This document shows positions 10,693 to 50,335 of a stretch of DNA of 64,000 bases, one piece after another. Both the position numbers and the translations under genes were made by a program. The stretch is taken from contig DATKBT010000052.1 of the NCBI GenBank assembly GCA_035546295.1, forward strand, positions 36,032 to 100,031, in the 5' to 3' direction. This stretch comes from Thermoanaerobaculia bacterium (lineage in GTDB: Bacteria; Acidobacteriota; Thermoanaerobaculia; Multivoradales; Multivoraceae). The notes beneath the pieces were generated by a model. It worked only from the letters and a program-made list of their open reading frames with translations. It was not told the DNA's origin and searched no databases. The first letter of the stretch is position 1. Each line of letters starts with the position of its first letter.

Positions 10693-11118
10693 TCAGCGGC
10701 CGACCGGCTCGCCGGCGGGCTCGCTCACCGGTTCCAGCTCGGCATGGAGAGGATAGACGCCCGAGGCGTCGTGCACCTCGTCGCCGTGCAGCGGCGGGTT
10801 GAACACGCACACCATCCGCATCTCGCTCGACGCGCGCAAGGTGTGACGATCGTGCTGGTCGAGCGCGTAGACGGTGCCCGGGCGGATCGGATGGACCTCG
10901 CCGTCCTCGGTCTCGATCTCGCCCTCGCCCGCGATGCAGTAGACGGCCTCCAGATGGTGGCGGTACCACATGCGGGTGACGGTGCCGCGCTTGATCACGG
11001 TGTCGTGGAGCGAGAACCCCATCCCCTCGTGCGCCAGCAGCAGCCGGCGGCTGGTCCAGTTGGCGGTGTCCACCTCGCGCTCGGACGAGATCAGCTCGTC
11101 GAGATGCCGGACGATCAT
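10693..11118 (-). CDS. ectC: L-ectoine synthase
   Basis: 141-aa cupin MIVRHLDELI...VYCIAGEGEIETEDGEVHPIRPGTVYALDQHDRHTLRA typical of EctC. Confidence 0.9.
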   Translation of the reverse strand: MIVRHLDELISSEREVDTANWTSRRLLLAHEGMGFSLHDTVIKRGTVTRMWYRHHLEAVYCIAGEGEIETEDGEVHPIRPGTVYALDQHDRHTLRASSEMRMVCVFNPPLHGDEVHDASGVYPLHAELEPVSEPAGEPVGR

Positions 11119-11166
11119 CGGATGCTCCTCTCGGGTCGAACGACCATTGTTCAGATGGATGCGAGC

Positions 11167-12444
11167 TCAGACGGATGCGAGCTCGGCCGGTGCGCGCTCG
11201 GTGCAAGCGACCTGGACCGCCTCGGCGATCAGCTCGAGCCCACGCTCGAGCTCGGGCTCGGGAATGGTCAGCGGCGGCAGCAGCTTGAGCACCTCGTCGG
11301 ATGGGCCCGCGGTCTCGATGATCAGGCCGCGCTCGAAGGCGGCGCGGGAGGCCTCGGCGGCCAGCTCGGGCGGATCGAAGACGAGGCCCTGGATCAGACC
11401 GCGGCCGCGGACCTCGGAGACGAGGCCCTCGGAGCCGGCCGCGATCTCCTCGAGGCGCGAGCGGACCCGGCGCGACTTCGCGGCGACGGCGTCTTCGAGC
11501 TCGGAGTCGCTCCAGTAGCGCTCGAGCGCGGCGGTGGCGGTGACGAAGGCGAGGTTGTGCCCGCGGAAGGTGCCGTTGTGCTCGCCCGGCGCCCACTGGT
11601 CGAGCTCGGGGCGGATCAGGACCAGGCTGAAGGGCAGTCCGTAACCGCTCAGCGACTTCGACAGACACACCAGGTCCGGGGTCACGCCGCACGGCTCGAA
11701 GCTGAAGAACGGGCCGGTACGCCCGCAGCCGACCTGGATGTCGTCGACGATCAGGAGCACGTCGTGGCGCGCCGCGATGTCGGCGACGTTGCGCAGCCAG
11801 TCGTCGCCGGCGACGTTGACGCCGCCCTCGGCCTGGACCGTCTCGAGGATGATCGCGGCCGGTTTGTCGAGCCCGCTGCTGGTGTCCGCCAGCATCGTCT
11901 CCAGCAGGTCGAGCGAATGAGTCTCCTGGCCGTAGCCGTCGAACGGGACCGGCGTGGTCTGGGAGAGTGCAACGCCGGCGGCCGCCCGCTTCGCACGGTT
12001 GCCGGTGACCGCCAGCGAGCCGAGGGTCATCCCGTGGAATGCGTTGGTAAAGAACACCACGCGCTCGCGCCCGGTGACCTTGCGGGCCAGCTTGAGCGCC
12101 GCCTCGACCGCGTTGGTGCCGGTCGGGCCCGGGAACTGGACACGGTACTCGAACCCCCGCGGCGCCAGGATCAGCTCGTGCAGGGTCTCGAGCAGCTCCT
12201 CCTTGGCCCGGGTGGCGAGGTCGAGCGAGTGCGAGACGCCGCCGCGTCCCAGGTAGGCGACCAGTCGCTCGCGCAGCTCGGACGGGTTGTGCCCGTAGTT
12301 GAGGGCTCCGGCGCCGGCGAAGAAGTCGAGGTAGCGTCGTCCGTCGACGTCGTGGAGGTGGCAGCCCTCGGCGCGGTCGAAGACCACCGGGAAGCTGCGA
12401 CAGTAGCCGCGGACGCTGGATTCGTGACGGTCGATGACTTTCAA
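11167..12444 (-). CDS. ectB: Diaminobutyrate--2-oxoglutarate transaminase
   Basis: Class-III PLP aminotransferase, 425 aa. Conserved PLP-lysine context SKSLSGYGLPFS. Sits between ectA and ectC. Confidence 0.9.
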   Translation of the reverse strand: MKVIDRHESSVRGYCRSFPVVFDRAEGCHLHDVDGRRYLDFFAGAGALNYGHNPSELRERLVAYLGRGGVSHSLDLATRAKEELLETLHELILAPRGFEYRVQFPGPTGTNAVEAALKLARKVTGRERVVFFTNAFHGMTLGSLAVTGNRAKRAAAGVALSQTTPVPFDGYGQETHSLDLLETMLADTSSGLDKPAAIILETVQAEGGVNVAGDDWLRNVADIAARHDVLLIVDDIQVGCGRTGPFFSFEPCGVTPDLVCLSKSLSGYGLPFSLVLIRPELDQWAPGEHNGTFRGHNLAFVTATAALERYWSDSELEDAVAAKSRRVRSRLEEIAAGSEGLVSEVRGRGLIQGLVFDPPELAAEASRAAFERGLIIETAGPSDEVLKLLPPLTIPEPELERGLELIAEAVQVACTERAPAELASV

Positions 12445-13019
12445 GACGGGTCTCCAGTTCTGGCTTCGGGGTTGGGTTCGCGGGAGATCGTCGGAGAGGA
12501 GCGGGCGTTCGCTTGCGCGCGGTTCTCGGCCGCGCGGTCGACGTCCTCGGCGGCCAGCGGTCCGATGCGGATGTGGTGCTCCTCGGCGTGAGAGTCGGGA
12601 AACAGCTCAGCCGGGAAGTGGGGGCGGCGCTCGAAGCCCGCATCGAGGCAGCGCGCGACGCTGCGGAACAGAGCGAGAGAGGCGGTGTTGTCGGGCGTGA
12701 CCGTCGCCTCGAGCCAGCGCGGCACCGGCCTGGCGGTGGCCAGCGCGCCGACCAGGAGCTGGCGCGCAAGCCCCCGTCCGCGGGCCTCTTCGGCGACCGC
12801 GATCTGCCACACGAAGAGCGAGGAGGGGGTCTCGGGCGGCGAATAGCCGAGGACCGCTCCTTCGACCTTGTCGCCGTCCTCCGCCAGCAGGCAGGTGTCC
12901 CGGAAGTGCGAGCACAGGAGCAGGTAGGCATACGGCGAGTTGACGTCGAGCTGGTCGGAGTCGCGCACCAGACGCCACACCCTCGCGGCGTCCTCGGGTC
13001 GGGGGCGTCGCAGACGCAT
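12441..13019 (-). CDS. ectA: L-2,4-diaminobutyric acid acetyltransferase
   Basis: GNAT fold, 192 aa, immediately upstream of ectB with a 4-nt overlap. Confidence 0.85.
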   Translation of the reverse strand: MRLRRPRPEDAARVWRLVRDSDQLDVNSPYAYLLLCSHFRDTCLLAEDGDKVEGAVLGYSPPETPSSLFVWQIAVAEEARGRGLARQLLVGALATARPVPRWLEATVTPDNTASLALFRSVARCLDAGFERRPHFPAELFPDSHAEEHHIRIGPLAAEDVDRAAENRAQANARSSPTISREPNPEARTGDPS

Positions 13020-14326
13020 CAGCCGGAAGCCGGAACGGTGCCGCCGTCAGCGATCTGGGGAACCATTGCGTCGTGGATCGAGCGGATCGCCGGCAGCACC
13101 GTCGTCCGCTCGATCAGCAGCGTGTACGCATGGTCAACGGCGTGCTCGGCGTCGACCGTGATGCGGTGGCGATCGGTGACCTGGCGGGTGCGATTGCGAC
13201 GGCTCTCGCAGTCCCCGATGCCGAGACCGATGACCGAGACCGAGCCCAGGCCGTCGTCGACCTCGACCTCGCGGTCGAAGGCCCGCTCGAGATCGCAGGC
13301 CAGGTCTTGGCGCGCCGGCAGCTCGTCGGCGGGGAAGAAGAGGGTTCGGCAGCTGCCCGCTCGCAGCGCCGAGAAGGGGATCGACGAGACGCCGACCGCG
13401 GACTCCAGCTCGCGCGCCAGCCCATCGTCGGCGGCGGAGTCGCGCAAGCGCAGTCGCACGAGCTGCCGGTGTCCGGCGACGCCGGTCACTGCGCCCGCGC
13501 CGTTGCCGTCGCCATTCTCGATCGGCGGTCCGATGATCGTACCGGCGCCGGCTCCGAAGGCGGGACGTGCGTGGAGCTCGACCCGATGCGCGGCCGCATG
13601 CTCGACGGCGCGCCGGTCGAGCACCGAGGCACCGGAGTAGGAGAACGCGACCATCTCGTCGTAGGTCACTCGCTCGAGGAGCTGCGCGCCGTCGACGATG
13701 CGCGGATCGGCCGAGAACACCCCCTCGACGTCGGAGTAGATCTCGCAGCGGAGCGCGCCGAGCACCGCGGCGAGCGCCACGGCGCTGGTGTCGGAGCCGC
13801 CCCGCCCGAGCGTCGTGACGTCGCCATCGGGGGCCTCTCCCTGGTAGCCGGCGACCACCACGATCCGGCCGGAGGCCAGCTCGCGCAGCACCCGCGCCGG
13901 CTGCACACCCTCGATGCGCGCGCCGAAGTGGTTCTTGTCGGTGCGGATTCCGCTCTGGGGGCCGCTGAGGGAGACCGCGGCGCAAGCCAGCTCCTCGATC
14001 GCCATCGAGAGCAGGGCCATCGAGATCCGCTCGCCGGAAGAGACCAGCACGTCGAGCTCGCGCCGTGGAGGCGTCGTGTGCAGGGACCGCGCCATGCTCA
14101 GCAGCTCGTCGGTGGTGCTGCCCATCGCCGAGACCACGACGACGACGTCGAAGCCCTGGCTGCGAGTGGACACCACGCGCTCGGCGACCCGGCGCAGCTT
14201 GGCGATGTCGGCCAGCGAGGTGCCGCCGAACTTCTGCACCACGATCGGCGTGCTCGGCACGATCGGCGTGATCGGATGGGTCTGCGCGTTCGGCCGGACC
14301 CCCGGACATCCAGACGGAATGGTCAT
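13019..14326 (-). CDS. ask: Aspartate kinase (ectoine-cluster-associated Ask_ect type); start uncertain
   Basis: Hallmark [10 protein letters not shown], then the amino-acid kinase domain and two ACT-like regions. Stop overlaps the ectA start by 1 nt. Confidence 0.8.
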
Positions 14327-14475
14327 GTCGAGCGGCGCAGAGATAAGAGCAGAATTCAGTGGAATCGAAGAGGGCAAAGGCGTCGAGCGCCGATACTTGT
14401 TATAGCAAAAGATGCTGAGGCATGCAACGTCTCGAACCCGAGCTCTCCCTGCCCTCCCGTTCGACCGGCAGGCGG

Positions 14476-14518
14476 GGGCCATCGAGCGAGGCCATCGAGC
14501 GGGGCCATCGAGAGGCGC
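14476..14518. repeat. Three tandem ~14-nt direct repeats GCCATCGAGCG(A/G)GG between divergent ask and the BNR-repeat gene
   Basis: Read directly: gccatcgagcgag / gccatcgagcgggg / ccatcgagaggcg. Confidence 0.4.
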
Positions 14519-38734: not shown

Positions 38735-40897
38735 CTACATCCTGGCCAGCAGGGCCGCGTAGCGGGGATCGGCACGCAGCGGCTCGAAGTCGGAATCGTG
38801 CTCGATCCACTCCTTGTAGCCGAAGCCATTGTCGACCGCCTTCTCGAGCAGCTCCATCGCGTCGTCGGACTCGCCGGCGAGCGAGAACACGCACGCCACG
38901 TTGTACGCGATCAGCGGGTCGCTCGGATCGATCGCCAGCGCTCGCCGCCCCCACTCGAGCCCCCGCTCCCGCTGGCCGAGCTCCACCAGGGAGGTGGCGC
39001 CGAAGTAGAAGGCCCGTGCGTCGTCCGGGTTGAGCTCGATGCGCCCCTCGACGATCTGCAGGGTCTTGCGGGCCGCGGCCTCGACCCGGGCACGCGGGGC
39101 CCCCATCGAGACTAGCGCCTGGGTCATCAGGCGCGGCGCCTGGTAGTCCTCGGGGCGCAGCTCGCTCGCCTTCTCGAACAGCTCGATCGCCTTTTCGAAG
39201 CGTCCCTGGGCCTGGCAGTTGCGGCCGTAGAAGTAGTAGGCCTCGTAGAGCTTCGCGTTGCGGCGGATCGCGTCCTCGAACTCGGCCTCGGCTCCTTCGT
39301 AGTCCTTGGCGATGGTCAGAGCAAGGCCGCGCGAGGCGTGCGCCTCCGCGAGGTCCGGGTCCAGCTCGAGGGCCCGCTGGCTGTTGAAGTCGGCCTCGCG
39401 CCGATTGGCCTCGCTGCTCTCGGCGTACATGAACAGGAACGAGCAGCAGTCGGCGATCCCGGCGTAGGAGAGGGCGAACGCGGGATCGAGCTGGATCGCC
39501 TTGGCGTACATCTGCCGCGCGTAGTGGAAGCTCTTCTCGTTCATCTGGTAGAAGAACTTCCTGCCTCGCAGGTAGTACTCGTAGGCCTCGACGTTCTGGG
39601 TGGCGACGTTGCGCATCGCCCGCCGTTCCTTGGGCGAGAGCGTGAGCTCGAGAGCCTTGACGATGCTCTCCGAGATCTCGTCCTGGATGGTGAACACGTC
39701 CTCGAGCTGGCGGTCGTAGCGCTCGGACCACAGGCGGTAGCCGTCCTCGACGTTGACCAGCTGCGCGGTGATGCGCAGGCGGTTCCCCGACTTGCGGACG
39801 CTCCCCTCGAGGATCGAGCTGACGTCCAGGCGCCGCCCGATCTCGCGAACGTCGGAGGACGCGCCCTTGTACTGGAACGACGAGGTGCGCGACGCCACCC
39901 GCAGGCTCTCGAGCCGTCCGAGGCCGTTGATGATGTCCTCGGCGATGCCCTCGCAGAAGTAGTCCTGCTCCGGGTCGGGGCTCATGTTGAGGAAGGGGAG
40001 GACGGCGACCGAGGGAGGCCGCTTCTCCTCGACGTCTCCCCGGCCGGCCTCGCGCTCGATCTCCTCGAGCTCGAGGCGGAGGTCGCGCACCGACTGGAAG
40101 CGACGCTCGGGTGCCTTCTCGAGGCAGCGCCGGATGACCCGGGAGAGGTGGCCGGGCAGGTCCGAGCGGCCCTCGCCGACCTCGCCGGGGGCGTCGCGCA
40201 GGATCGACGAGATGAGCTGGGCCGAGCTGTCGCCCCGGAACGGGCGCTCGCCGGTGACCAGCTCGTAGAACATGATCCCGAGGGCGAAGATGTCGGTGCG
40301 ATGGTCCACCGGCTGCCCCTGCACCTGCTCCGGCGACATGTAGGGCATGGTCCCGAGCAGCGACCCGGCCTCGGTGAGGTTCTGGGTGTACGCGGCGGTG
40401 GCCTGCTGGTCCCCGGCGCTCGAGTCCTCGTGGAGCTTGGCGAGACCGAAGTCGAGCACCTTGAGGCGCCCGTCGGCCCCGACCATCGCGTTGGCCGGCT
40501 TGAGATCCCGGTGGGTGATCCCGCGATCGTGCGCGGCGATCAGCGCGTCGGCGAGCTGAAAGGCGATCTCCAGGAAGCGCGGGAGCGGCATGCCTCCGGG
40601 CCGCACCAGGTGGGTCAGCGGTTCGCCCTGGACCAGCTCCATGGTGAGGAAGGTCCGACCCTCGACCTCTTCGACCGAGTAGAGGGTGACGATGTTCGGG
40701 TGGTTCAGGGACGCCACCGCCTTGGCCTCGCGGCGGAAGCGCTGGAGTCGCTCCGGCTTGTCTTCCATCTGCGCCGGCAGGATCTTGAGGGCCACTCGCC
40801 GGCCCAACTGGATGTCCTCGGCGGCGTACACCTCACCCATGCCGCCTTCACCCAGCTTGGCGTCGATGCGGTAGTGCGACAGCGTCTCGCCGATCAC
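38735..40897 (-). CDS. Ser/Thr protein kinase with C-terminal TPR-repeat domain; start uncertain (ORF extends to 41179)
   Basis: Kinase subdomains GEGGMGEVY, VALK, HRDLKPAN, DFGLAK, SPE. C-terminal half has multiple TPR units. Confidence 0.8.
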   Translation of the reverse strand: MIGETLSHYRIDAKLGEGGMGEVYAAEDIQLGRRVALKILPAQMEDKPERLQRFRREAKAVASLNHPNIVTLYSVEEVEGRTFLTMELVQGEPLTHLVRPGGMPLPRFLEIAFQLADALIAAHDRGITHRDLKPANAMVGADGRLKVLDFGLAKLHEDSSAGDQQATAAYTQNLTEAGSLLGTMPYMSPEQVQGQPVDHRTDIFALGIMFYELVTGERPFRGDSSAQLISSILRDAPGEVGEGRSDLPGHLSRVIRRCLEKAPERRFQSVRDLRLELEEIEREAGRGDVEEKRPPSVAVLPFLNMSPDPEQDYFCEGIAEDIINGLGRLESLRVASRTSSFQYKGASSDVREIGRRLDVSSILEGSVRKSGNRLRITAQLVNVEDGYRLWSERYDRQLEDVFTIQDEISESIVKALELTLSPKERRAMRNVATQNVEAYEYYLRGRKFFYQMNEKSFHYARQMYAKAIQLDPAFALSYAGIADCCSFLFMYAESSEANRREADFNSQRALELDPDLAEAHASRGLALTIAKDYEGAEAEFEDAIRRNAKLYEAYYFYGRNCQAQGRFEKAIELFEKASELRPEDYQAPRLMTQALVSMGAPRARVEAAARKTLQIVEGRIELNPDDARAFYFGATSLVELGQRERGLEWGRRALAIDPSDPLIAYNVACVFSLAGESDDAMELLEKAVDNGFGYKEWIEHDSDFEPLRADPRYAALLARM

Positions 40898-41100
40898 GGT
40901 GAACGTCTCCTCGATCCGCGCGCGGGTGCGGCCGCTGGCAGGCTCCAGCGGGCCAGAACCGATCAGTGTAGCAGCGGGTCCTGAGCGACCCGGCAGGCGG
41001 CGATCCGCGCTTTCCGCTGGACGGCTCGGGGCGCTCGCAGCGGTCGGCCCGTGGAGGCTGTCGGGCCGCGGGCGCTCTCCGTATCTCGGCGGCAGCGGTG

Positions 41101-42101
41101 CTACGTCTCTCCCAGCTCCTCTTTCACCCTCCTCTCCAATTCCACCATCCCCTCGAAACCCCCGGCCAGCACCCGCCACTCGATCTCACGTCCCATCAAC
41201 AGCCGATCCACCTGGACCCAGAGATCCCGGTTCTTCACCGCGCTCCCCGATCCCGTCTTCCACCCCCGCGTCTTCCACCCCGGGAGCCACTCGCTCGCCC
41301 CCTTGCGCAGGTAATCGCCCGCGTGGATCGTCAAGGCGACTTCCTGTGGACACTCGTGGAGCACAGCGATTCCTGCCTCGAGCTCCAACCGGTTCGCCGA
41401 GGTCTCCCGTGACGATCCCGCCAGCACCTCCTGCTCGTCGCCCACCAGCAACAATGCCGCCCAGGCACCGTGCTTCCCGCGACACCGCACCTTGGTCCAG
41501 GCCGCCGCCTCCGTTGTCGGCGGACCCTGCGCTTCGTGGGCCGCGTCGACAGCACCCACGGCCCGTGCCCCGGCCCCAGCCATGTCGACGATCGCCGCCG
41601 TCGCCAGCTCGTCCGCCCGCTCGTTGTGCTCGTGGCCGGCGTGCCCCTTGAGCCAGTGCCAGCGCACGTGATGGCGCGCCTCCGCGTCGACCAGCCGCCG
41701 CCACAGGTCCTCGTTCTTCACCGGCTCGAGCTGGTCGCCGACCTTGCGCTTCCACCCGCGCCGCATCCAGTTCTGGACCCACTGCATGACGCCGCGCCGC
41801 ACGTAGGTCGAGTCGGTGTGCACGTCGACGGTGGCGCCTTCGGGAAGGTGCTCGAGCGCCGAGATGGCGGCGGTGAGCTCCATTCGATTGTTGGTGGTGT
41901 GCGAGTCGGAGCCCGAGAGCTCCTCGACCACCTGGCCTCTCGCCGCGTCGAGGATCACGGCGCCCCAGCCACCGGGGCCGGGGTTGGGGCGGGCGCCGCC
42001 GTCGGTATAGACCTCGAAGCGCGATGGGCCGCCGCGGCGCGGTCCGTCCTGCACGCCCTCCCTGCGCTCTCGCACCGAGCGGCTCTCGAGCCGCCGAGCC
42101 G

Positions 42102-43696: not shown

Positions 43697-43700
<4 letters not shown>

Positions 43701-44401
43701 CGATCGCGCGGAGCCGCGCCTTCGCTGCCCGCGCCCTGATCACCGGAGCCCTGATCAGCGGAGCCCTGTCCTCCGGAGCCCTGTCCTCCCGAGCCGTGCT
43801 CTCCCGAGCCCTGCTCGCCGGCGCTGGGCTCGCCGCGCTCGATCCGACCCCACATGTGCCCGCCGAACGCGCCGTGCTGCCAGGTCCCGGCGTAGCGGTC
43901 GCCGTGGATCATCACGCGCACCGTGAAAGTGCCGAGCCCCTCGACCTCCTGGTCGGTCATGGTCAGCATGGGAGTGTCGTCGGCCCAGACCACGCGCACG
44001 GGGATGTCGAAGGTGGTCCCCGGGCTGTTGCCCGAGGAACCCTGGTTGCCGCCGTAGCTCATCGTGTAGTGGAAGATCCAGACGTCGCCTTCGCCCTTCT
44101 CGAGCTCCGAGACCGAGTACAGGTCCGGGCGCGGAGCGTCGCCGGTCTGGCCGGTGTCGACCGTGAACTCGCCGACCAGGCGCGCTCCCGTCATCAGCGC
44201 CTCGAAGCGGGCGTCGCGGTCGGCCTGCTCGGCCACACCCTGGCCCCCAGCGCCCGGCGCGGCTGGACTCGCGATGCCTGCGCTGCCGACCACGATGCCG
44301 AGGACGACCGCCATCATCGAAGGCAGCCGGTGGGCGAGCCGGGCGGATCGGGCGGCGACGCGTGGCGGCGCCGAGGTGGTCGAGCGAGGAGGCATGGACA
44401 T
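43697..44401 (-). CDS. Secreted hypothetical protein with C-terminal G/S/Q-rich repeats
   Basis: Signal-like MMAVVLGIVVGSAGIASPA; C-terminus GEQGSGEHGSGGQGSGGQGSADQGSGDQGAG encoded by tandem 15-nt DNA repeats at ~43740-43830. Confidence 0.5.
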
Positions 44402-47066: not shown

Positions 47067-48044
47067 TCAGAGATCGACCCAGAGCCCGGCGGAGAGGTAG
47101 CTCTCGGAGTCCTGGAAGAACTCTCCGAGCGGCGGGCGCCCGTCGACGTACGCGATGCCGGCGCGCCACACCCGACCGCCCGCCGGGAACAGCAGTCCGG
47201 CCTGCAGCGCCCAGTCCGTCCGCCAATCGCGCTCCTCCCAACTCGACAGGTCGGCAGCCGCGTACCAGCCGAAGCGGCCGCCCCCCGCGAACCGGTCCCG
47301 GTCCTCGAACACCAGCCCGACCTGGACCCGCCAGGGGCGCTGTAGATCGATCCTGAGCTCGTGGGCGTGTGCCGCCTCCAGATAGGCGCGCCAACTCGCC
47401 GAGAGGTCGAGATTGAGGCCCGCCAACAGCTCCTCGCGCGTGTAGCCGATGCGGCCGCGCCCGGTGCGCTCCAGGTACTCGTCGCCGACGTGGGCCGAGG
47501 TGTGGAGCAGGCCGGCCTTCCAGGCGAGCCGGGGCCCGCGTGCGGCGGTGACCGTCAAGCCGTAGAAGCCGTCCCAACCGATGTTGTCCTGGGAGGCGTC
47601 GTTGTCGAACTGCCCCGCGAACCCGGCCTCGATGCCGAGCTGCAGGCTGCGGCTCGGATTGGCCCTGGGGCGCAGTCGCAGCACTCCGAAGCGCCCGCCG
47701 AGCCTGAGGAACATGCGCGAGTCGCCCGAGCCGGCGATGCCCGAGGACCCCATCGCGAGCAGCTCGACCGAGTTGGTGAGCCGGTGGGGAGAGGCGACGT
47801 TCGGCGGGTACGGATCGGTGCTCGGAAACAGGTCGAAGGCCCATCTCCGGCTCTCGATCGGCTCGATCGGCTCGATCGGCTCGAGGGGATCCTGAGCAGC
47901 GGCGGCGCCTCCGAGCAGAGCGCACAGCGCCGCCAGTAGACCAGTGCTCGCGCTCTTTTGGCCGAGGCACGACCGTTCGCGAGAGCTCCGGGCGGCGAAG
48001 CTCCCGAGCGCACGCTCCGGAAGACCTGGGCCGGTCGACAGCAT
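47067..48044 (-). CDS. DUF1207 family protein (secreted/outer-membrane associated); start uncertain
   Basis: Signal-like LLAALCALLGGAAAA, then ESRRWAFDLFPS and a beta-rich body typical of DUF1207. Confidence 0.5.
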   Translation of the reverse strand: MLSTGPGLPERALGSFAARSSRERSCLGQKSASTGLLAALCALLGGAAAAQDPLEPIEPIEPIESRRWAFDLFPSTDPYPPNVASPHRLTNSVELLAMGSSGIAGSGDSRMFLRLGGRFGVLRLRPRANPSRSLQLGIEAGFAGQFDNDASQDNIGWDGFYGLTVTAARGPRLAWKAGLLHTSAHVGDEYLERTGRGRIGYTREELLAGLNLDLSASWRAYLEAAHAHELRIDLQRPWRVQVGLVFEDRDRFAGGGRFGWYAAADLSSWEERDWRTDWALQAGLLFPAGGRVWRAGIAYVDGRPPLGEFFQDSESYLSAGLWVDL

Positions 48045-48718
48045 TGGGTCAAGATACCGCGAACGCGAAGACGGTTGCCCGTGTTCTGGAGAGTGTGACG
48101 GCACGAAGCTCCCTTACCGGTGGCGAGACCCTCGCCGCGCAGGTCAGCCTCGACGGGCTGGCGGCGAGCATCCATGCCCGCACCGCCGGCGCGTTCGAGC
48201 GGCTGGTCGGGTACTTCGAGAAGCCGCTCTTCAACTACGTCCAGCGCCTGGTCCCCAGCCTCCCGGATGCCCAGGAGGTGGTCCAGGACACCTTCCTGCG
48301 CGCCCACAAGGCGCTCACCCGGCAGTACTCGAGCGACCGGTGCCAATCGCTGGCGCTGCGCCCGTGGCTGTTCCGGATCGCCCGCAACCTCTCCCACAAC
48401 AAGCGGCGCGGGCTGCGCCACCGCGTCGAGTGTCAGATGCCCGACGACCACGAGCAGCGCCTCGCGCCGCTCGACGGCGTCGCGGTGCTGTGCACGGTCG
48501 AGCAACGCCAGGAGCTCGAACGGTTGGAGCGCGCGATGGCGGCGCTGCCGCTGGCTAGCCGCGAGCTCGTGGTGCTGCGCTTCATCGAGGAGATGTCATA
48601 CGCCGAGATCGCGGCCACCACCGGACAGGGGGAGGCGGCGCTGCGCGGCAAGGTGTTCCGGGCGCTCCAGCAGCTGCGCGATGCGCTCGCCCGACAGGAG
48701 GATCGACATGCGATGTGA
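48044..48718 (+). CDS. ECF-subfamily RNA polymerase sigma-70 factor
   Basis: Region 2 VQDTFLRAHKAL...RPWLFRIARN; region 4 LVVLRFIEEMSYAEIAATTGQGEAALRGKVFRALQQLR. Confidence 0.8.
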   Translation: MGQDTANAKTVARVLESVTARSSLTGGETLAAQVSLDGLAASIHARTAGAFERLVGYFEKPLFNYVQRLVPSLPDAQEVVQDTFLRAHKALTRQYSSDRCQSLALRPWLFRIARNLSHNKRRGLRHRVECQMPDDHEQRLAPLDGVAVLCTVEQRQELERLERAMAALPLASRELVVLRFIEEMSYAEIAATTGQGEAALRGKVFRALQQLRDALARQEDRHAM

Positions 48719-49604
48719 GAGTGCCCTGCTCCGGCTCGACGAGCTGCGCACCGGCGAGCTCGCCTCCGCGGAGGCGGAGGCGGTGCGTCGTCATCTCGAG
48801 GACTGCCACCACTGCGCGGGTGCGAATCGCGCGTTGCGCGAGGTGGCGGGCGCTGCCCCCGGCCTGCTCGGCGAGCTGCCGAGCTCGTGCGCCGACGAGC
48901 TCGCCCGCCGGCTGTTCGACCACTGGTCGCGCATGCGCGCCGAGGGGCTCGACCTGTGGGTGGCGTTCTCGGAGCGCGGGCTCACCGAGATCGTGCCGAC
49001 GTCGGCGAAGAGCTTCGAGTCGTTCTCCTGGGAGCACGCCCGGCGCACCGGCAAGGAGCTGCGCGAGGACGAGCTGCCGGCGCCGCTCGCCGAGCAGGTC
49101 GAGCAAGCGGCGGCCGGCCTCGGTGTCGCCGCGCCCGCGGTCGACCTCTCCTGGCTGCCTCCGTTCGAACGGCAGGTGCTACGCACCCTCTCCGAGATCC
49201 CCGGCGGCGAGCTGCGCAGCTACGCCTGGGTGGCGCGCGAGGCGGGTCGCCCCACCGCGGTCCGGGCGGTGGGTAACGCCTGCGCCCGCAACCCGGTGCC
49301 GCTGGTGGTCCCGTGCCACCGGGTGGTGCCGGCGGCGGGCGGGATCGGCGGCTACGCCTTCGGCTCGGAGATGAAACGCGAGATCCTCGAGCGCGAGGGG
49401 GTCGACCTCGGGCTGGTCGACCAGCTCGAGCGGCGGCACGCGAAGTACGTGACCGTCGACGACCACTGGTACTGCTTCCCGACCTGTCGCTCGTTGCGCG
49501 GAGTCGGTCGCGACCAGATCGAGCCGGTGCGCGATGAGCGCGAGGCGGCGGCGCGCGGGCTCCAGCCCTGCGACGAGTGCCGCCCGCTGGAGCTGGCGTC
49601 GTGA
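48708..49604 (+). CDS. Anti-sigma factor (zf-HC2) fused to an O6-alkylguanine-DNA alkyltransferase (MGMT/Ogt) domain and a C-terminal Cys4 zinc ribbon
   Basis: ATG 8 nt inside the sigma-factor 3-prime end. N-terminal HLEDCHHCAGANRAL. Central FERQVLRTLSEIPGGELRSYAWVAREAGRPTAVRAVGNACARNPVPLVVPCHRVV with intact PCHRV active site. C-terminal CFPTC...CDEC. Confidence 0.7.
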   Translation: MRCESALLRLDELRTGELASAEAEAVRRHLEDCHHCAGANRALREVAGAAPGLLGELPSSCADELARRLFDHWSRMRAEGLDLWVAFSERGLTEIVPTSAKSFESFSWEHARRTGKELREDELPAPLAEQVEQAAAGLGVAAPAVDLSWLPPFERQVLRTLSEIPGGELRSYAWVAREAGRPTAVRAVGNACARNPVPLVVPCHRVVPAAGGIGGYAFGSEMKREILEREGVDLGLVDQLERRHAKYVTVDDHWYCFPTCRSLRGVGRDQIEPVRDEREAAARGLQPCDECRPLELAS

Positions 49605-50335
49605 GCCTGGCGTTGGCAGAACGGCCGGTGCGCCTCCCCACGGTTGCCGTACCGGAGCGCCCGACCTTCCACGCGGTGTCGCGGCCGGCGACGGCGCTCT
49701 CCGGTGACTTCTACCTCGCCCACCCGCGCTCCGACGGCTGGCTGCTCGGGCTCGGGGACGTCGCGGGCCACGGGCTCGACGCCGCGGTGTTCATGCTGAT
49801 GATCCAGGAGGAGATCGAACGACTCGCGCACGCCGGAGCGTCGCTCCCGCTCCTGGTGGCGGAGCTCCACATGGTGCTGCGCCGCGAGCTGCCGAGCAGG
49901 AGCTTCGTGTCGCTGGTATTGGTGCGCCTGGAGCCCGACGGCGGGCTGGAGGCGCTCAACGCCGGGCACTGCCCTCCGCTGCTGCGCAGGGCCGACGGGA
50001 TGATCGAGCCGCTGCTCCCCGGCGGTCCGATCGTCGGCGCGCTGCCCTGCTCGCGCTGGACCTCACGGAGGACCCGGCTGGGCGCCGGCGACACCCTGCT
50101 GGTGTTCTCGGACGGGGTCACCGAGACGACCTCGCGAGCGGGCGAGGAGTTCGGGATGGGGCGGATCGGCGCGACGCTCTGGCGTCACGGGTCGCTCGAG
50201 CCGCGGCGGCTCGCCGAGCGCCTGCTCGACGAGCTCGAGGCGTTCCGCGGCGGCGCCGCCGCCCACGACGACACGACCGTGCTGGTCGCGCGCGCCGTGG
50301 AATCCGCGGCGGCCCCCGCGGGCGGGGTCGGCTGA
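49601..50335 (+). CDS. PP2C-family (SpoIIE/RsbU-like) serine phosphatase domain protein, GTG start overlapping upstream stop
   Basis: GDVAGHGLDAAVFM, VFSDGVTE, AHDDTTVLVA metal-binding motifs. Confidence 0.7.
   Translation: MSLALAERPVRLPTVAVPERPTFHAVSRPATALSGDFYLAHPRSDGWLLGLGDVAGHGLDAAVFMLMIQEEIERLAHAGASLPLLVAELHMVLRRELPSRSFVSLVLVRLEPDGGLEALNAGHCPPLLRRADGMIEPLLPGGPIVGALPCSRWTSRRTRLGAGDTLLVFSDGVTETTSRAGEEFGMGRIGATLWRHGSLEPRRLAERLLDELEAFRGGAAAHDDTTVLVARAVESAAAPAGGVG

Follow-up and report, generated by a model that had tools for sequence, protein, structure and literature searches.

An operon in the window, that is, the whole 64,000-nucleotide stretch of DNA analysed here, encodes an ECF sigma factor, a fusion protein and a phosphatase, and the fusion protein appears to join a zinc-type anti-sigma domain to two domains of DNA-alkylation repair. 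We lean, with confidence only a little above even, towards the reading that these genes form a self-contained ECF sigma/anti-sigma module that controls its own expression; its anti-sigma factor would double as a suicide protein of DNA-alkylation repair, and its output would be release of the sigma factor. If true, this would be an undescribed bacterial route for sensing DNA alkylation, in which alkyl removal probably frees a sigma factor. Sigma binding, alkyl transfer and the effect of alkylation on binding are all inferred, and there are no direct data on any of them.

The preliminary description of this DNA had named a sigma factor, an anti-sigma fusion and a PP2C gene, and all three are present with every domain attributed to them (Pfam/TIGR searches and translation); those parts of its interpretation that the analysis could address were likewise upheld. 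The features of the locus are:

48060..48085, + strand: ECF-type promoter, CGAACG (-35 region), N15, GTGTT (-10 region)
48095..48718, + strand: ECF (group 4) sigma factor, 207 aa (Pfam r2 and r4, TIGR02937)
48695..48700, + strand: Shine-Dalgarno AGGAGG, 7 nt upstream of the anti-sigma ATG, within the sigma 3' end
48708..49604, + strand: gene of the fusion protein, 298 aa, three domains, soluble product
48708..48914, + strand: fusion residues 1-69, putative zinc-type class I anti-sigma domain
48915..49403, + strand: fusion residues 70-232, O6-alkylguanine-DNA alkyltransferase, N-lobe and C-lobe
49407..49592, + strand: fusion residues 234-295, predicted N-Ada-type Cys4 zinc domain (family profile match)
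49601..50335, + strand: stand-alone PP2C/SpoIIE-family Ser/Thr phosphatase, 244 aa (Pfam SpoIIE)

The product of the first gene contains only regions 2 and 4, as expected of an ECF (group 4) sigma factor (Sigma70_r2, PF04542, E = 2e-9; Sigma70_r4_2, PF08281, E = 5e-11). It scores 66.5 bits against TIGR02937 sigma70-ECF (cut-off 42.9), and its nearest solved relatives, the best PDB sequence matches, are the ECF sigma factors SigE, RpoE, SigH and CnrH. The open frame reaches upstream to TTG 48044, where the start had initially been placed, and the added stretch overlaps the promoter. This start is wrong: the conserved promoter at 48060-48085 and the homologues beginning MKNSWTGG, which align their start codon with GTG 48095, indicate that the gene begins at the latter position.

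The motif CGAACG-N15-GTGTT ends 9 nt upstream of the start codon, and the mRNA therefore probably has little or no leader. About 46 related loci have it ahead of their sigma gene with identical spacing to the start codon, and it is also found in the closest relative. An ECF sigma factor would be expected to use a bipartite promoter ahead of its own gene whose -35 element contains AAC, as is the case here, although recognition by this sigma factor is inferred. The motif was strongly enriched before this sigma gene in a metagenome scan, where about 40 of 120 matches to a strict version of it were followed by the gene. Such strong conservation suggests that the operon is probably self-activating, a deduction from sequence since transcription was not measured. 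No second copy of the motif exists in the 64-kb window, and neither the window nor about 800 kb of related loci yielded another promoter target. Moreover, alkA/alkB-type repair genes were found neither in the window nor under the promoter motif; hence the ‘adaptive response’ would be either limited to the operon itself or served by a regulon elsewhere in the genome.

Both gene junctions proposed earlier were borne out. The fusion ATG (48708) lies 11 nt within the sigma ORF, as read from the sequence, so that the two genes overlap, and this arrangement recurs in most related loci; the AGGAGG that precedes the ATG inside the sigma gene suggests translational coupling. At the other end of the fusion gene, the PP2C GTG (49601) overlaps the fusion stop codon in a GTGA at 49601-49604, with GGAG 8 nt upstream. 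GTG 49577 is an alternative in-frame start, and the gene call of the closest relative (245 aa, also with a 4-nt overlap) backs the GTGA junction.

Residues 70-232 of the fusion protein are a complete two-lobe O6-alkylguanine alkyltransferase with all catalytic residues, alkyl transfer itself being inferred. DNA_binding_1 is matched at residues 152-232 (E = 6e-30), TIGR00589 ogt gives 95 bits (cut-off 46), and the Foldseek match to Ada-C (1SFE; E = 4.5e-11, TM = 0.78, 171 columns) extends over both lobes of the fold. Further Foldseek matches of this part are human AGT, M. tuberculosis OGT and S. solfataricus OGT, and entries of methylated forms (1EH7 and 4ZYG) are among the fold matches; the alignment to Ada-C and to the M. 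tuberculosis protein is without gaps. The active site P202-C203-H204-R205-V206 is encoded at 49311-49325 (Cys203 codon at 49314-49316), and the catalytic network is intact, with P202, C203, H204, R205, Y172, R186, N195, Y216 and E230 all invariant. The catalytic cysteine is kept in 118/118 full-length homologues, and among the 150 best clusters of an index-free HMM scan no intact member lacks it. A central MGMT fold with intact PCHRV had thus been recognized correctly, and as a complete domain, but its extent was underestimated, as the N-terminal lobe is also included (about residues 70-232 by Foldseek).

The C-terminal cysteines, CxxxC...CxxC, had likewise been noticed, yet what was called a ‘ribbon’ is in fact, as judged from profiles and the structure model, a full N-Ada-type zinc domain (residues 234-295), the module that accepts methyl groups from methylphosphotriesters in repair; alkyl transfer is again inferred. 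Ada_Zn_binding (PF02805) matches residues 253-293 just below its cut-off of 23 bits (21.6 bits, E = 2e-4), most homologues carry a precomputed PF02805 match, and the C-terminal family profile matches the N-Ada structures 1ADN, 1WPK, 1U8B and 1ZGW at E of about 1e-9. C256 (49473-49475) aligns with Ada Cys38, while C260, C288 and C291 align with Cys42, Cys69 and Cys72. All four of these zinc cysteines are invariant, as a Cys4 site would require, and the order of elements predicted by AF2 (helix-strand-strand...strand-helix) matches the N-Ada fold.

The assignment of residues 1-69 rests on several lines of evidence, each of which is weak alone. Pfam zf-HC2 matches residues 3-37 below its cut-off (E = 0.017; 15.6 versus 22.2 bits), the N-terminal family profile matches the anti-sigma factors RsiW, RslA and DdvA at E = 0.003-0.009, and the top seven Foldseek matches in the PDB are all anti-sigma factors (RslA, RskA, MucA) with E of 0.5-3 and TM of 0.52-0.6. 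Many homologues carry a precomputed PF13490 match. The proposed Zn ligands C3, H29, C33 and C36 (H29 to C36 at 48792-48815) align in the family profile with C3, H30, C34 and C37 of RsiW, and C3 together with H29-x3-C33-x2-C36, i.e. the HxxxCxxC signature plus an upstream ligand, is invariant in 118 sequences. AF2 predicts four helices in this domain (pLDDT 91-93; residues 3-15, 20-32, 34-53 and 59/61-69), the last of which (61-69) is continuous with MGMT strand 70-78; the whole model has pLDDT 92.8 and pTM 0.76. As expected of an anti-sigma factor, the gene lies beside that of its ECF sigma factor (here with the 11-nt overlap) in 54/54 full-architecture loci. Only jointly, with this context and the invariant ligands, do these data make a convincing case for a zinc class I anti-sigma domain, whose binding to the sigma factor is inferred. 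The zf-HC2-type N-terminus of the preliminary description agrees with the signature, the predicted helices and the gene position, although not with the Pfam cut-off; in the search for domain boundaries DNA_binding_1 was strong, whereas zf-HC2 and Ada_Zn_binding stayed below their cut-offs and were strengthened by the family profiles. Since the zinc anti-sigma (ZAS) ligands, the MGMT catalytic residues and the Ada cysteines are all invariant across 118 homologues (42-91% identity), both alkyl-acceptor sites and the anti-sigma zinc site are under simultaneous purifying selection.

These proteins form a conserved family. More than 100 full-length homologues of the fusion exist, and the survey of their neighbours yielded 54 full-architecture genome loci, mostly of Thermoanaerobaculia, with the sigma gene directly upstream in each; only the sigma, fusion and PP2C genes are conserved across loci while the flanking genes vary. 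The number of homologues and the constant sigma linkage exclude an assembly chimera, which had been named as a possible refutation.

At rest, the soluble 298-aa protein would hold the sigma factor via its N-terminal zinc domain, the fourth predicted helix of which continues directly into the opening strand of the alkyltransferase N-lobe. Sensing, as inferred from the chemistry of the two families, would consist of irreversible alkyl transfer from damaged DNA to one of two sites: Cys203 would accept alkyl groups from O6-alkylguanine or O4-alkylthymine, and zinc-bound Cys256 would accept them from methylphosphotriester. Alkylated alkyltransferases (AGT/OGT) are conformationally destabilised and degraded, and methylation of the N-Ada zinc site switches the charge and interactions of the domain. 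Either transfer is inferred to loosen or destroy the anti-sigma grip and so to free the sigma factor, which, judging by the conserved promoter, would transcribe its own operon from CGAACG-N15-GTGTT, giving more sigma factor, fresh repair/anti-sigma protein and PP2C phosphatase. One inhibitor molecule would be spent per repair event, and the new inhibitor would both repair DNA and re-sequester the sigma factor; synthesis of the suicide enzyme would thereby be matched to its consumption, and the response would switch itself off.

The E. coli protein Ada, composed of N-Ada (Zn-Cys4), an AraC HTH and C-Ada (MGMT), underlies the adaptive response to alkylation and is activated by methylation of Cys38. 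The analogy with Ada drawn in the preliminary description is stronger than was realised there, since both modules with which Ada accepts alkyl groups occur in the protein, namely a Cys4 methylphosphotriester domain and a PCHR alkyltransferase, each intact. The operon is, as for Ada, probably self-activating, and the expected logic is that a repair protein, by alkylating itself irreversibly, becomes a signal for transcription. Unlike in Ada, the order is reversed (MGMT, then zinc domain), and the output falls to a zinc anti-sigma domain and its partner ECF sigma factor instead of an AraC/HTH module (no match to HTH_18/AraC in the fusion). Alkylation would here inactivate an inhibitor and not activate an activator; the signal would therefore be the consumption of unmodified protein, not the accumulation of methylated protein. 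An Ada orthologue was considered and rejected, as the fusion reaches 91.9 of the 345 bits that the NCBIfam Ada equivalog requires, and only with its repair parts; the fusion is Ada-like in its inferred function, yet not an orthologue.

ChrR, the partner of Rhodobacter sigma-E, is an earlier example of a C-terminal sensor domain attached to a soluble zinc anti-sigma domain. The fusion shares with ChrR, RsrA, RslA and RsiW a putative N-terminal class I domain with a (C/H)...HxxxCxxC site, a gene directly after that of the ECF sigma factor, a cytoplasmic location and a probably autoregulated operon. However, its sensor would be a pair of DNA-repair suicide enzymes, in contrast to the cupin of ChrR or the ZAS thiols of RsrA. 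No described anti-sigma factor with an alkylation-repair sensor input was found in the literature.

Zinc anti-sigma domains can sense oxidants or electrophiles themselves, and hence the repair domains could be cargo and not the sensor. In such an RsrA-like thiol/redox switch, which is unlikely but the best surviving alternative, C3, C33 and C36 would sense oxidants or soft electrophiles, and the level of the MGMT/Ada cargo would be tied to the response. The invariance of C3 and H29-x3-C33-x2-C36 and the best sequence matches, all to ZAS proteins, fit this explanation, as does the GAAC...GTT promoter type, which resembles the promoters of SigR/SigH-type sigma factors, whose partners are soluble ZAS proteins. 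The reduced variants argue otherwise. They are encoded beside related sigma factors (only 27-37% identical to that of the window) in Actinomycetota (including Streptomyces), Chloroflexota, Dormibacterota and Eremiobacterota, and sigma-linked variants in four phyla have no ZAS motif, yet keep repair domains and the helix-4 segment, so that the element conserved with the sigma factor is the alkyl-acceptor module and not the zinc finger. Variants of the first three phyla combine a helix-4-like N-terminal peptide with MGMT and the Ada zinc domain, those of Eremiobacterota have ZAS and MGMT but no Ada zinc domain, and in Streptomyces the MGMT cysteine is gone (PVHR) while the Ada zinc cysteines persist. 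At least one alkyl-acceptor cysteine is kept in every reduced variant examined, and the pattern implies that the helix-4 segment is never lost, nor both acceptor sites together; as neither site is universal, which of them is the switch remains unresolved. Furthermore, many ZAS sites have a structural and not a sensory role, as noted for RsiW (PMC7406223).

Ranking behind the redox switch, and improbable in our view, is the explanation that the fusion is no anti-sigma factor: the sigma factor would merely drive an MGMT/Ada-type repair protein and be controlled elsewhere, and the zinc helices would serve, for example, DNA/RNA polymerase tethering. ECF122 is reportedly among the groups of the ECF classification of Casas-Pastor et al. 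2021. Its members (example Cellulomonas sp. Root930) are listed with a conserved 6-O-methylguanine DNA methyltransferase neighbour, without a cognate anti-sigma factor and with unknown mechanism (PMC8999054 citing PMC7826278), which accords with this explanation, as do the individually weak statistics of the anti-sigma domain. However, an autoregulated ECF sigma factor without inhibitor would run away; the overlapping downstream gene, the invariant RsiW-equivalent ligands, the four-helix prediction and the exclusively anti-sigma structural matches also speak against it, and the helix-4 segment, which no variant has lost, points to a conserved contact. An anti-sigma factor that releases its sigma factor upon alkylation remains our preferred reading.

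The ECF122 classification note is the only earlier mention found in the literature, and it recognises no anti-sigma domain and proposes no mechanism. Judging by the literature found, the claim that an anti-sigma/MGMT fusion is uncharacterised stands, whereas the sigma-MGMT association had already been noted. The sigma gene of the window adjoins an MGMT gene as in ECF122, and the ECF122 description fits the actinobacterial loci found here, including Streptomyces, with their related promoter TGCAACC-N15/16-GTGTT; the -35 element of the window family is CGAACG in place of TGCAACC. The window family also differs from ECF122 in being acidobacterial (Thermoanaerobaculia), in an MGMT protein that bears a complete zinc anti-sigma domain and in the added PP2C gene, and its sigma factor shares only 27-37% identity with those of the reduced-variant loci, the actinobacterial ones included. 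Formal membership of ECF122 is not established.

The product of the PP2C gene matches Pfam SpoIIE (PF07228) over profile positions 3-190 of 192 (E = 8e-43) and has the metal-binding motifs of the family (GDVAGHG, SDGVTE, HDDTT). It is an accessory restricted to Thermoanaerobaculia-type operons, encoded downstream in 42/54 full-architecture loci, missing from the other 12 (with flanks that are complete in L007 at least) and found in none of the reduced variants. Release governed by phosphorylation has precedents in partner-switching systems and in the control of RshA and RseA by PknB. The most doubtful explanation, that Ser/Thr phosphorylation of the sigma or anti-sigma factor governs release and PP2C reverses it, the repair domains being effectors only, draws on the RsbU/SpoIIE/SiaA partner-switching type of this frequent neighbour, but it is countered by the loci and variants without PP2C, by the lack of any conserved kinase, STAS or RsbW-like gene nearby in related loci, and by the position of the sole kinase in the window, 7 kb away and not among the genes conserved across related loci.

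RsbX is the feedback phosphatase at the end of the Bacillus sigB operon. The window PP2C resembles it in being a catalytic domain only and the last gene of a probably autoregulated alternative-sigma operon, and by this analogy a feedback or relay role on an unknown substrate is possible; unlike in the sigB operon, no STAS or RsbW partners are encoded near it. The solved proteins closest to the window PP2C are the RsbU-like domain of Rv1364c, SiaA and SpoIIE. As a separate observation, the presence of a PP2C hints at an additional phosphorylation input.

Three co-oriented ORFs make up the operon, as the preliminary description had it, in a region of about 71% GC:

48095..48718: ECF sigma factor, 207 aa, with Sigma70_r2 and r4_2 Pfam matches and TIGR02937 above cut-off
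48708..49604: fusion gene, 298 aa, its ATG 11 nt within the sigma ORF and 7 nt past AGGAGG
from GTG 49601: PP2C/SpoIIE phosphatase, catalytic domain only (Pfam E 8e-43)

The claim that these genes are coupled fits both junctions, the fusion ATG lying inside the sigma ORF behind AGGAGG and the PP2C GTG overlapping the fusion stop (GTGA). The overlap and the AGGAGG before the fusion ATG suggest, as far as sequence can tell, that sigma and fusion are translationally coupled. The closest relative, with a fusion 91% identical to that of the window, has an independently called PP2C gene of 245 aa with the identical 4-nt overlap. The solved relatives nearest to the sigma factor are SigE, RpoE, SigH and CnrH, and those nearest to the PP2C are partner-switching phosphatases (the RsbU-like domain of Rv1364c, SiaA and SpoIIE).

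The genes flanking the operon are unrelated (PPTase, M24 peptidase, DUF1207 protein, alkaline phosphatase, Na/H exchanger and FG-GAP protein), and our survey shows no DNA-repair or partner-switching genes in the remainder of the window. A scan of the operon found neither a sigma-70 promoter nor an intrinsic terminator. The window encodes a single kinase, a Ser/Thr protein kinase of 814 aa with TPR repeats at its C-terminus, 7 kb upstream of the operon (38735-41179, minus strand); because it did not turn up among the genes that related loci share, it could not be connected with the PP2C.

An AlphaFold2 model of the fusion, built from 118 homologues (mean pLDDT 92.8, pTM 0.76), was combined with profile and structure searches to place its domains:

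residues 1-69: anti-sigma domain (helices 3-15, 20-32 and 34-53, a flexible loop, and helix 61-69)
residues ~70-232: complete two-lobe O6-alkylguanine alkyltransferase (MGMT), by Foldseek and alignment
residues ~234-295: N-Ada-type zinc domain, by family profile against four N-Ada structures (E ~1e-9)

An N-terminal zinc anti-sigma domain had been proposed, and residues C3, H29, C33 and C36 are indeed invariant among the 118 homologues. In the alignment with RsiW they fall on C3, H30, C34 and C37, the zinc ligands in the RsiW structure. The top PDB sequences for the profile of residues 1-69 are anti-sigma factors (RsiW, E 0.003; RslA, 0.009; DdvA, 0.009), with ChrR lower, and the top seven Foldseek matches of a separate model of these residues (pLDDT 91.5) are all anti-sigma as well (RslA, RskA, MucA), these being statistically weak (E 0.5-3, TM 0.52-0.6). 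The individually modest statistics, combined with the position of the gene, clearly assign the segment to the zinc-type class I anti-sigma domains (ZAS); sequestration of the sigma factor itself is inferred.

The central alkyltransferase, suggested earlier to be intact with its PCHRV motif, has E. coli Ada-C as its best Foldseek match (1SFE, E 4.5e-11, TM 0.78), followed in order by human AGT, M. tuberculosis OGT and S. solfataricus OGT. Its C-lobe aligns with Ada-C without gaps, and PCHRV is invariant among the 118 homologues together with the Tyr, Arg-finger, Asn-hinge, Tyr and Glu residues. The C-terminal cysteines had been read as a ribbon; the cysteines hold, but the family profile makes them part of an N-Ada-type zinc domain (Ada-Zn), in which C256, C260, C288 and C291 align with Ada Cys38, Cys42, Cys69 and Cys72. 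Cys38 is the methylphosphotriester acceptor of Ada. The fusion has both alkyl-acceptor modules of Ada, and an anti-sigma domain replaces the AraC helix-turn-helix; no HTH domain was found in the fusion, which is soluble (no hydrophobic span) and with 92 bits falls far short of the 345-bit cut-off of the Ada equivalog model. It works like Ada and yet is no Ada orthologue, alkyl transfer itself being inferred. An exact-sequence look-up found no record of the window protein.

By protein search the fusion has more than 120 full-length homologues (287-319 aa, 41-91% identity), most with the same three Pfam domains and, where the source is named, mainly from Thermoanaerobaculia or Acidobacteriota. 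The survey of fusions and neighbours that had been called for was run on species-representative genomes and yielded 576 relatives, the best 80 of which supply the following locus figures:

ZAS + MGMT + Ada-Zn: 54 loci, sigma upstream in 54/54, PP2C downstream in 42/54, mostly Thermoanaerobaculia
short N-terminus + MGMT + Ada-Zn: 17 loci, sigma upstream, no PP2C, Actinomycetota, Chloroflexota and Dormibacterota
ZAS + MGMT without Ada-Zn: 3 loci, sigma upstream, no PP2C, Eremiobacterota and Vulcanimicrobiota

At the full-architecture loci the sigma/fusion junction usually overlaps as in the window. All-against-all ORF clustering of the 80 loci revealed no conserved neighbours besides sigma, fusion and PP2C, and the conserved unit is, on this comparison of sequences, a mobile two- or three-gene cassette. 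The remaining ORF 'clusters' are antisense artefacts of high-GC DNA. An assembly chimera is ruled out by more than 100 full-length homologues and the 54 syntenic genome loci. A 439-aa version in Bacterium HR23 (locus L074:5632-6951), in which the ZAS motif is complete, the linker longer and the C-terminus extended, takes the three-domain architecture beyond Acidobacteriota.

The short N-terminus of the reduced variants (consensus L..L....aP.gL..rVL..G) lies immediately N-terminal to the MGMT N-lobe and aligns to the end of anti-sigma helix 3 and to helix 4. The occurrence of PCHR in all 80 loci is partly circular, as VPCHRVVP was one of the scan patterns, and was corrected for by an index-free HMM search and a Streptomyces locus. 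The former, over 1.84 billion cluster representatives, gave 46,167 MGMT-superfamily clusters, 514 of them at E<=1e-30; among the best 150, 13 have all three domains, 76 MGMT + Ada-Zn and 7 ZAS + MGMT, and every intact sequence has the catalytic Cys. Cultured Streptomyces (S. cyaneofuscatus, S. cavourensis and others) have a more diverged module, with a sigma of 192 aa whose gene overlaps that of a 284-aa partner; the partner retains the Ada zinc cysteines and a helix-4-like segment, and its MGMT active site reads PVHR. At one such locus (L203:4001-5430, GCA_042789405.1), the overlap is 4 nt, TGCAACC-N16-GTGTT lies upstream, Val stands in place of the MGMT Cys, and the Ada-type zinc site, CxPxC...CxxC, is preserved. 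The ZAS motif, the Ada-Zn domain and the MGMT cysteine can each be missing from one variant or another; no variant examined has lost the helix-4 segment or both alkyl-acceptor cysteines.

Alignment of the DNA upstream of the sigma genes revealed, at about 46 loci, (C/G)CGAACG, 15 nt, GTGTT and 9 nt before the start codon. In the window this motif is found as

48060-48085: sigma promoter motif, CGAACGCGAAGACGGTTGCCCGTGTT, followed by GTG 48095

The sigma start had been set at TTG 48044. That codon lies upstream of the conserved promoter, which would then sit within the longer ORF, so the 207-aa protein from GTG 48095, which aligns with the ATG of the homologues (MKNSWTGG...), is preferred. The promoter lies at a short, fixed distance from the start, and most loci have no Shine-Dalgarno sequence, from which a leaderless or nearly leaderless sigma mRNA is inferred. 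The longest ORF of the divergent DUF1207 gene (47067-48104, minus strand) would begin at 48104, within the sigma promoter/start region; in the closest relative the homologous gene call has 325 aa, against 345 in the window, which makes a true start further downstream, and a short intergenic region, probable. Short repeats occur just upstream of the promoter in related loci L016, L035 and L036 (~60-90 nt) and also in L011, L013, L025, L026 and L039. Among them are a shared palindrome, GGAGATCCCGCGTCTACGCGCGGGATA(A/G)ACTG, and tandem or inverted oligomers such as CTCTAAGAC, CGATGAACG and GAGGAACTCC; in appearance they resemble REP-like elements or a terminator belonging to the upstream gene.

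A search tolerating one mismatch still gives a single copy of the promoter motif in the window, and the locus of the closest relative likewise has one; across about 800 kb of related loci, the number of additional matches (seven) is close to chance expectation. In metagenomes the strict pattern CGAACGAAAC-N10-CGTGTT precedes the start of this sigma at about 40 of 120 matching loci, and the scan showed no recurrent non-sigma gene downstream except duplicates of an MsrP-like gene (MPKAAQRSSSMNVIRRRGWEIPESCATPEHLFFDRR...). This gene follows the pattern by 43 nt in two near-identical metagenome contigs (L100:2757-2782 and L129, 1890, minus strand) which may be coincidental or mark a genuine further target confined to one lineage. 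The promoter reads TGCAACC-N15/16-GTGTT at the loci of variant B and Streptomyces, and GTGAAACC...GTGTC in Eremiobacterota. From these scans the operon itself is the only demonstrable target of the sigma factor, and autoregulation is probable, as predicted from the motif; the scans do not rule out further targets elsewhere in the genome. Like RsbX, the PP2C ends a probably autoregulated sigma operon, and its substrate is unknown.

Domain identities, conserved acceptor and zinc anti-sigma sites, obligate sigma linkage, overlapping junctions and a conserved ECF-type promoter are established here. The best reading, which we hold to be somewhat better than an even bet, is alkylation-triggered release of sigma in a self-replenishing loop. 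The fusion would sequester sigma until an alkyl group from damaged DNA moved irreversibly to Cys203 and/or the zinc-bound Cys256 and disrupted its hold. Alkylated alkyltransferases are destabilised, and methylation of the N-Ada zinc site is an electrostatic switch; either could be the route of disruption, and the effect may be relayed by helix 4, which in the AlphaFold2 model runs on into the MGMT N-lobe. Freed sigma would then raise transcription of the operon and, because the inhibitor is itself the repair enzyme consumed by repair, the loop would restock a single-use protein in proportion to damage and then reset.

An RsrA-like thiol switch, with the repair domains as mere cargo, is the strongest of the alternatives and still improbable, being weakened by the variants that lack the ZAS. 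Slightly less probable is the absence of any anti-sigma function, which is how group ECF122 stands at present. According to a 2022 review (PMC8999054, citing the 2021 ECF reclassification, PMC7826278), conserved 6-O-methylguanine DNA methyltransferases are encoded near ECF122 sigmas (example: Cellulomonas sp. Root930), and the group is placed among those without a cognate anti-sigma factor, its mechanism unknown. The main text of the Casas-Pastor paper (PMC7826278) contains no description of ECF122. Our actinobacterial loci match the review's description, without a formal ECF-group assignment. The full ZAS in the window's acidobacterial family marks the MGMT partner openly as an anti-sigma factor. 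Phosphorylation control via the PP2C has the least to recommend it, since the PP2C is patchy among loci and kinase or STAS partners are missing.

Alkylation-triggered release may also be generalised to an Ada-independent second adaptive response, in which each alkyl group removed would destroy one anti-sigma and free one sigma, so that consumption is sensed and the single-use enzyme pool kept topped up. Applied to proteins whose sigma-binding segment is reduced to helix 4 alone, the same principle would also account for the ECF122-type sigmas regarded as 'orphans' in Actinomycetota (Streptomyces among them) and for relatives in at least four further phyla. For this reading as a whole we see about equal chances of being right or wrong. 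A full-text literature search found no paper on an anti-sigma/alkyltransferase fusion, in agreement with the earlier reading, which was not aware of one having been characterised. The operon is real, conserved across phyla, architecturally coherent and uncharacterised, and its fusion-based mechanism is plausible and unproven; what is new would be the input, when it is seen as an ECF sigma/anti-sigma pair, and the output, when it is seen as an Ada-type response.

If true, covalent, irreversible transfer of DNA damage onto an anti-sigma factor would be a new class of ECF sigma input, the Ada paradigm would gain a new class of output, and control would be explained for an ECF group listed without a known regulator. 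The operon would be a natural circuit that senses depletion of a suicide enzyme, and would offer synthetic biology a compact, orthogonal, alkylation-responsive set of sigma, anti-sigma and promoter (CGAACG-N15-GTGTT). With SNAP-tag-like chemistry, a sigma-controlling MGMT could in principle be triggered by benzylguanine-type ligands. The idea is directly testable, related modules being present in cultured Streptomyces.

Elsewhere in the window, a 234-aa ORF (43697-44401, minus strand) without a Pfam match has a signal-peptide-like N-terminus and a low-complexity tail rich in Gly, Ser, Gln and Asp (GSGEHGSGGQGSGGQGSADQGSGDQGAGSEG). An ectoine biosynthesis cluster (10693-14482, minus strand), which suggests osmoadaptation in this Thermoanaerobaculia-like genome, comprises:

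10693-11118, minus strand: ectoine synthase
11167-12444, minus strand: class-III aminotransferase
12441-13019, minus strand: GNAT acetyltransferase
13019-14482, minus strand: amino-acid kinase
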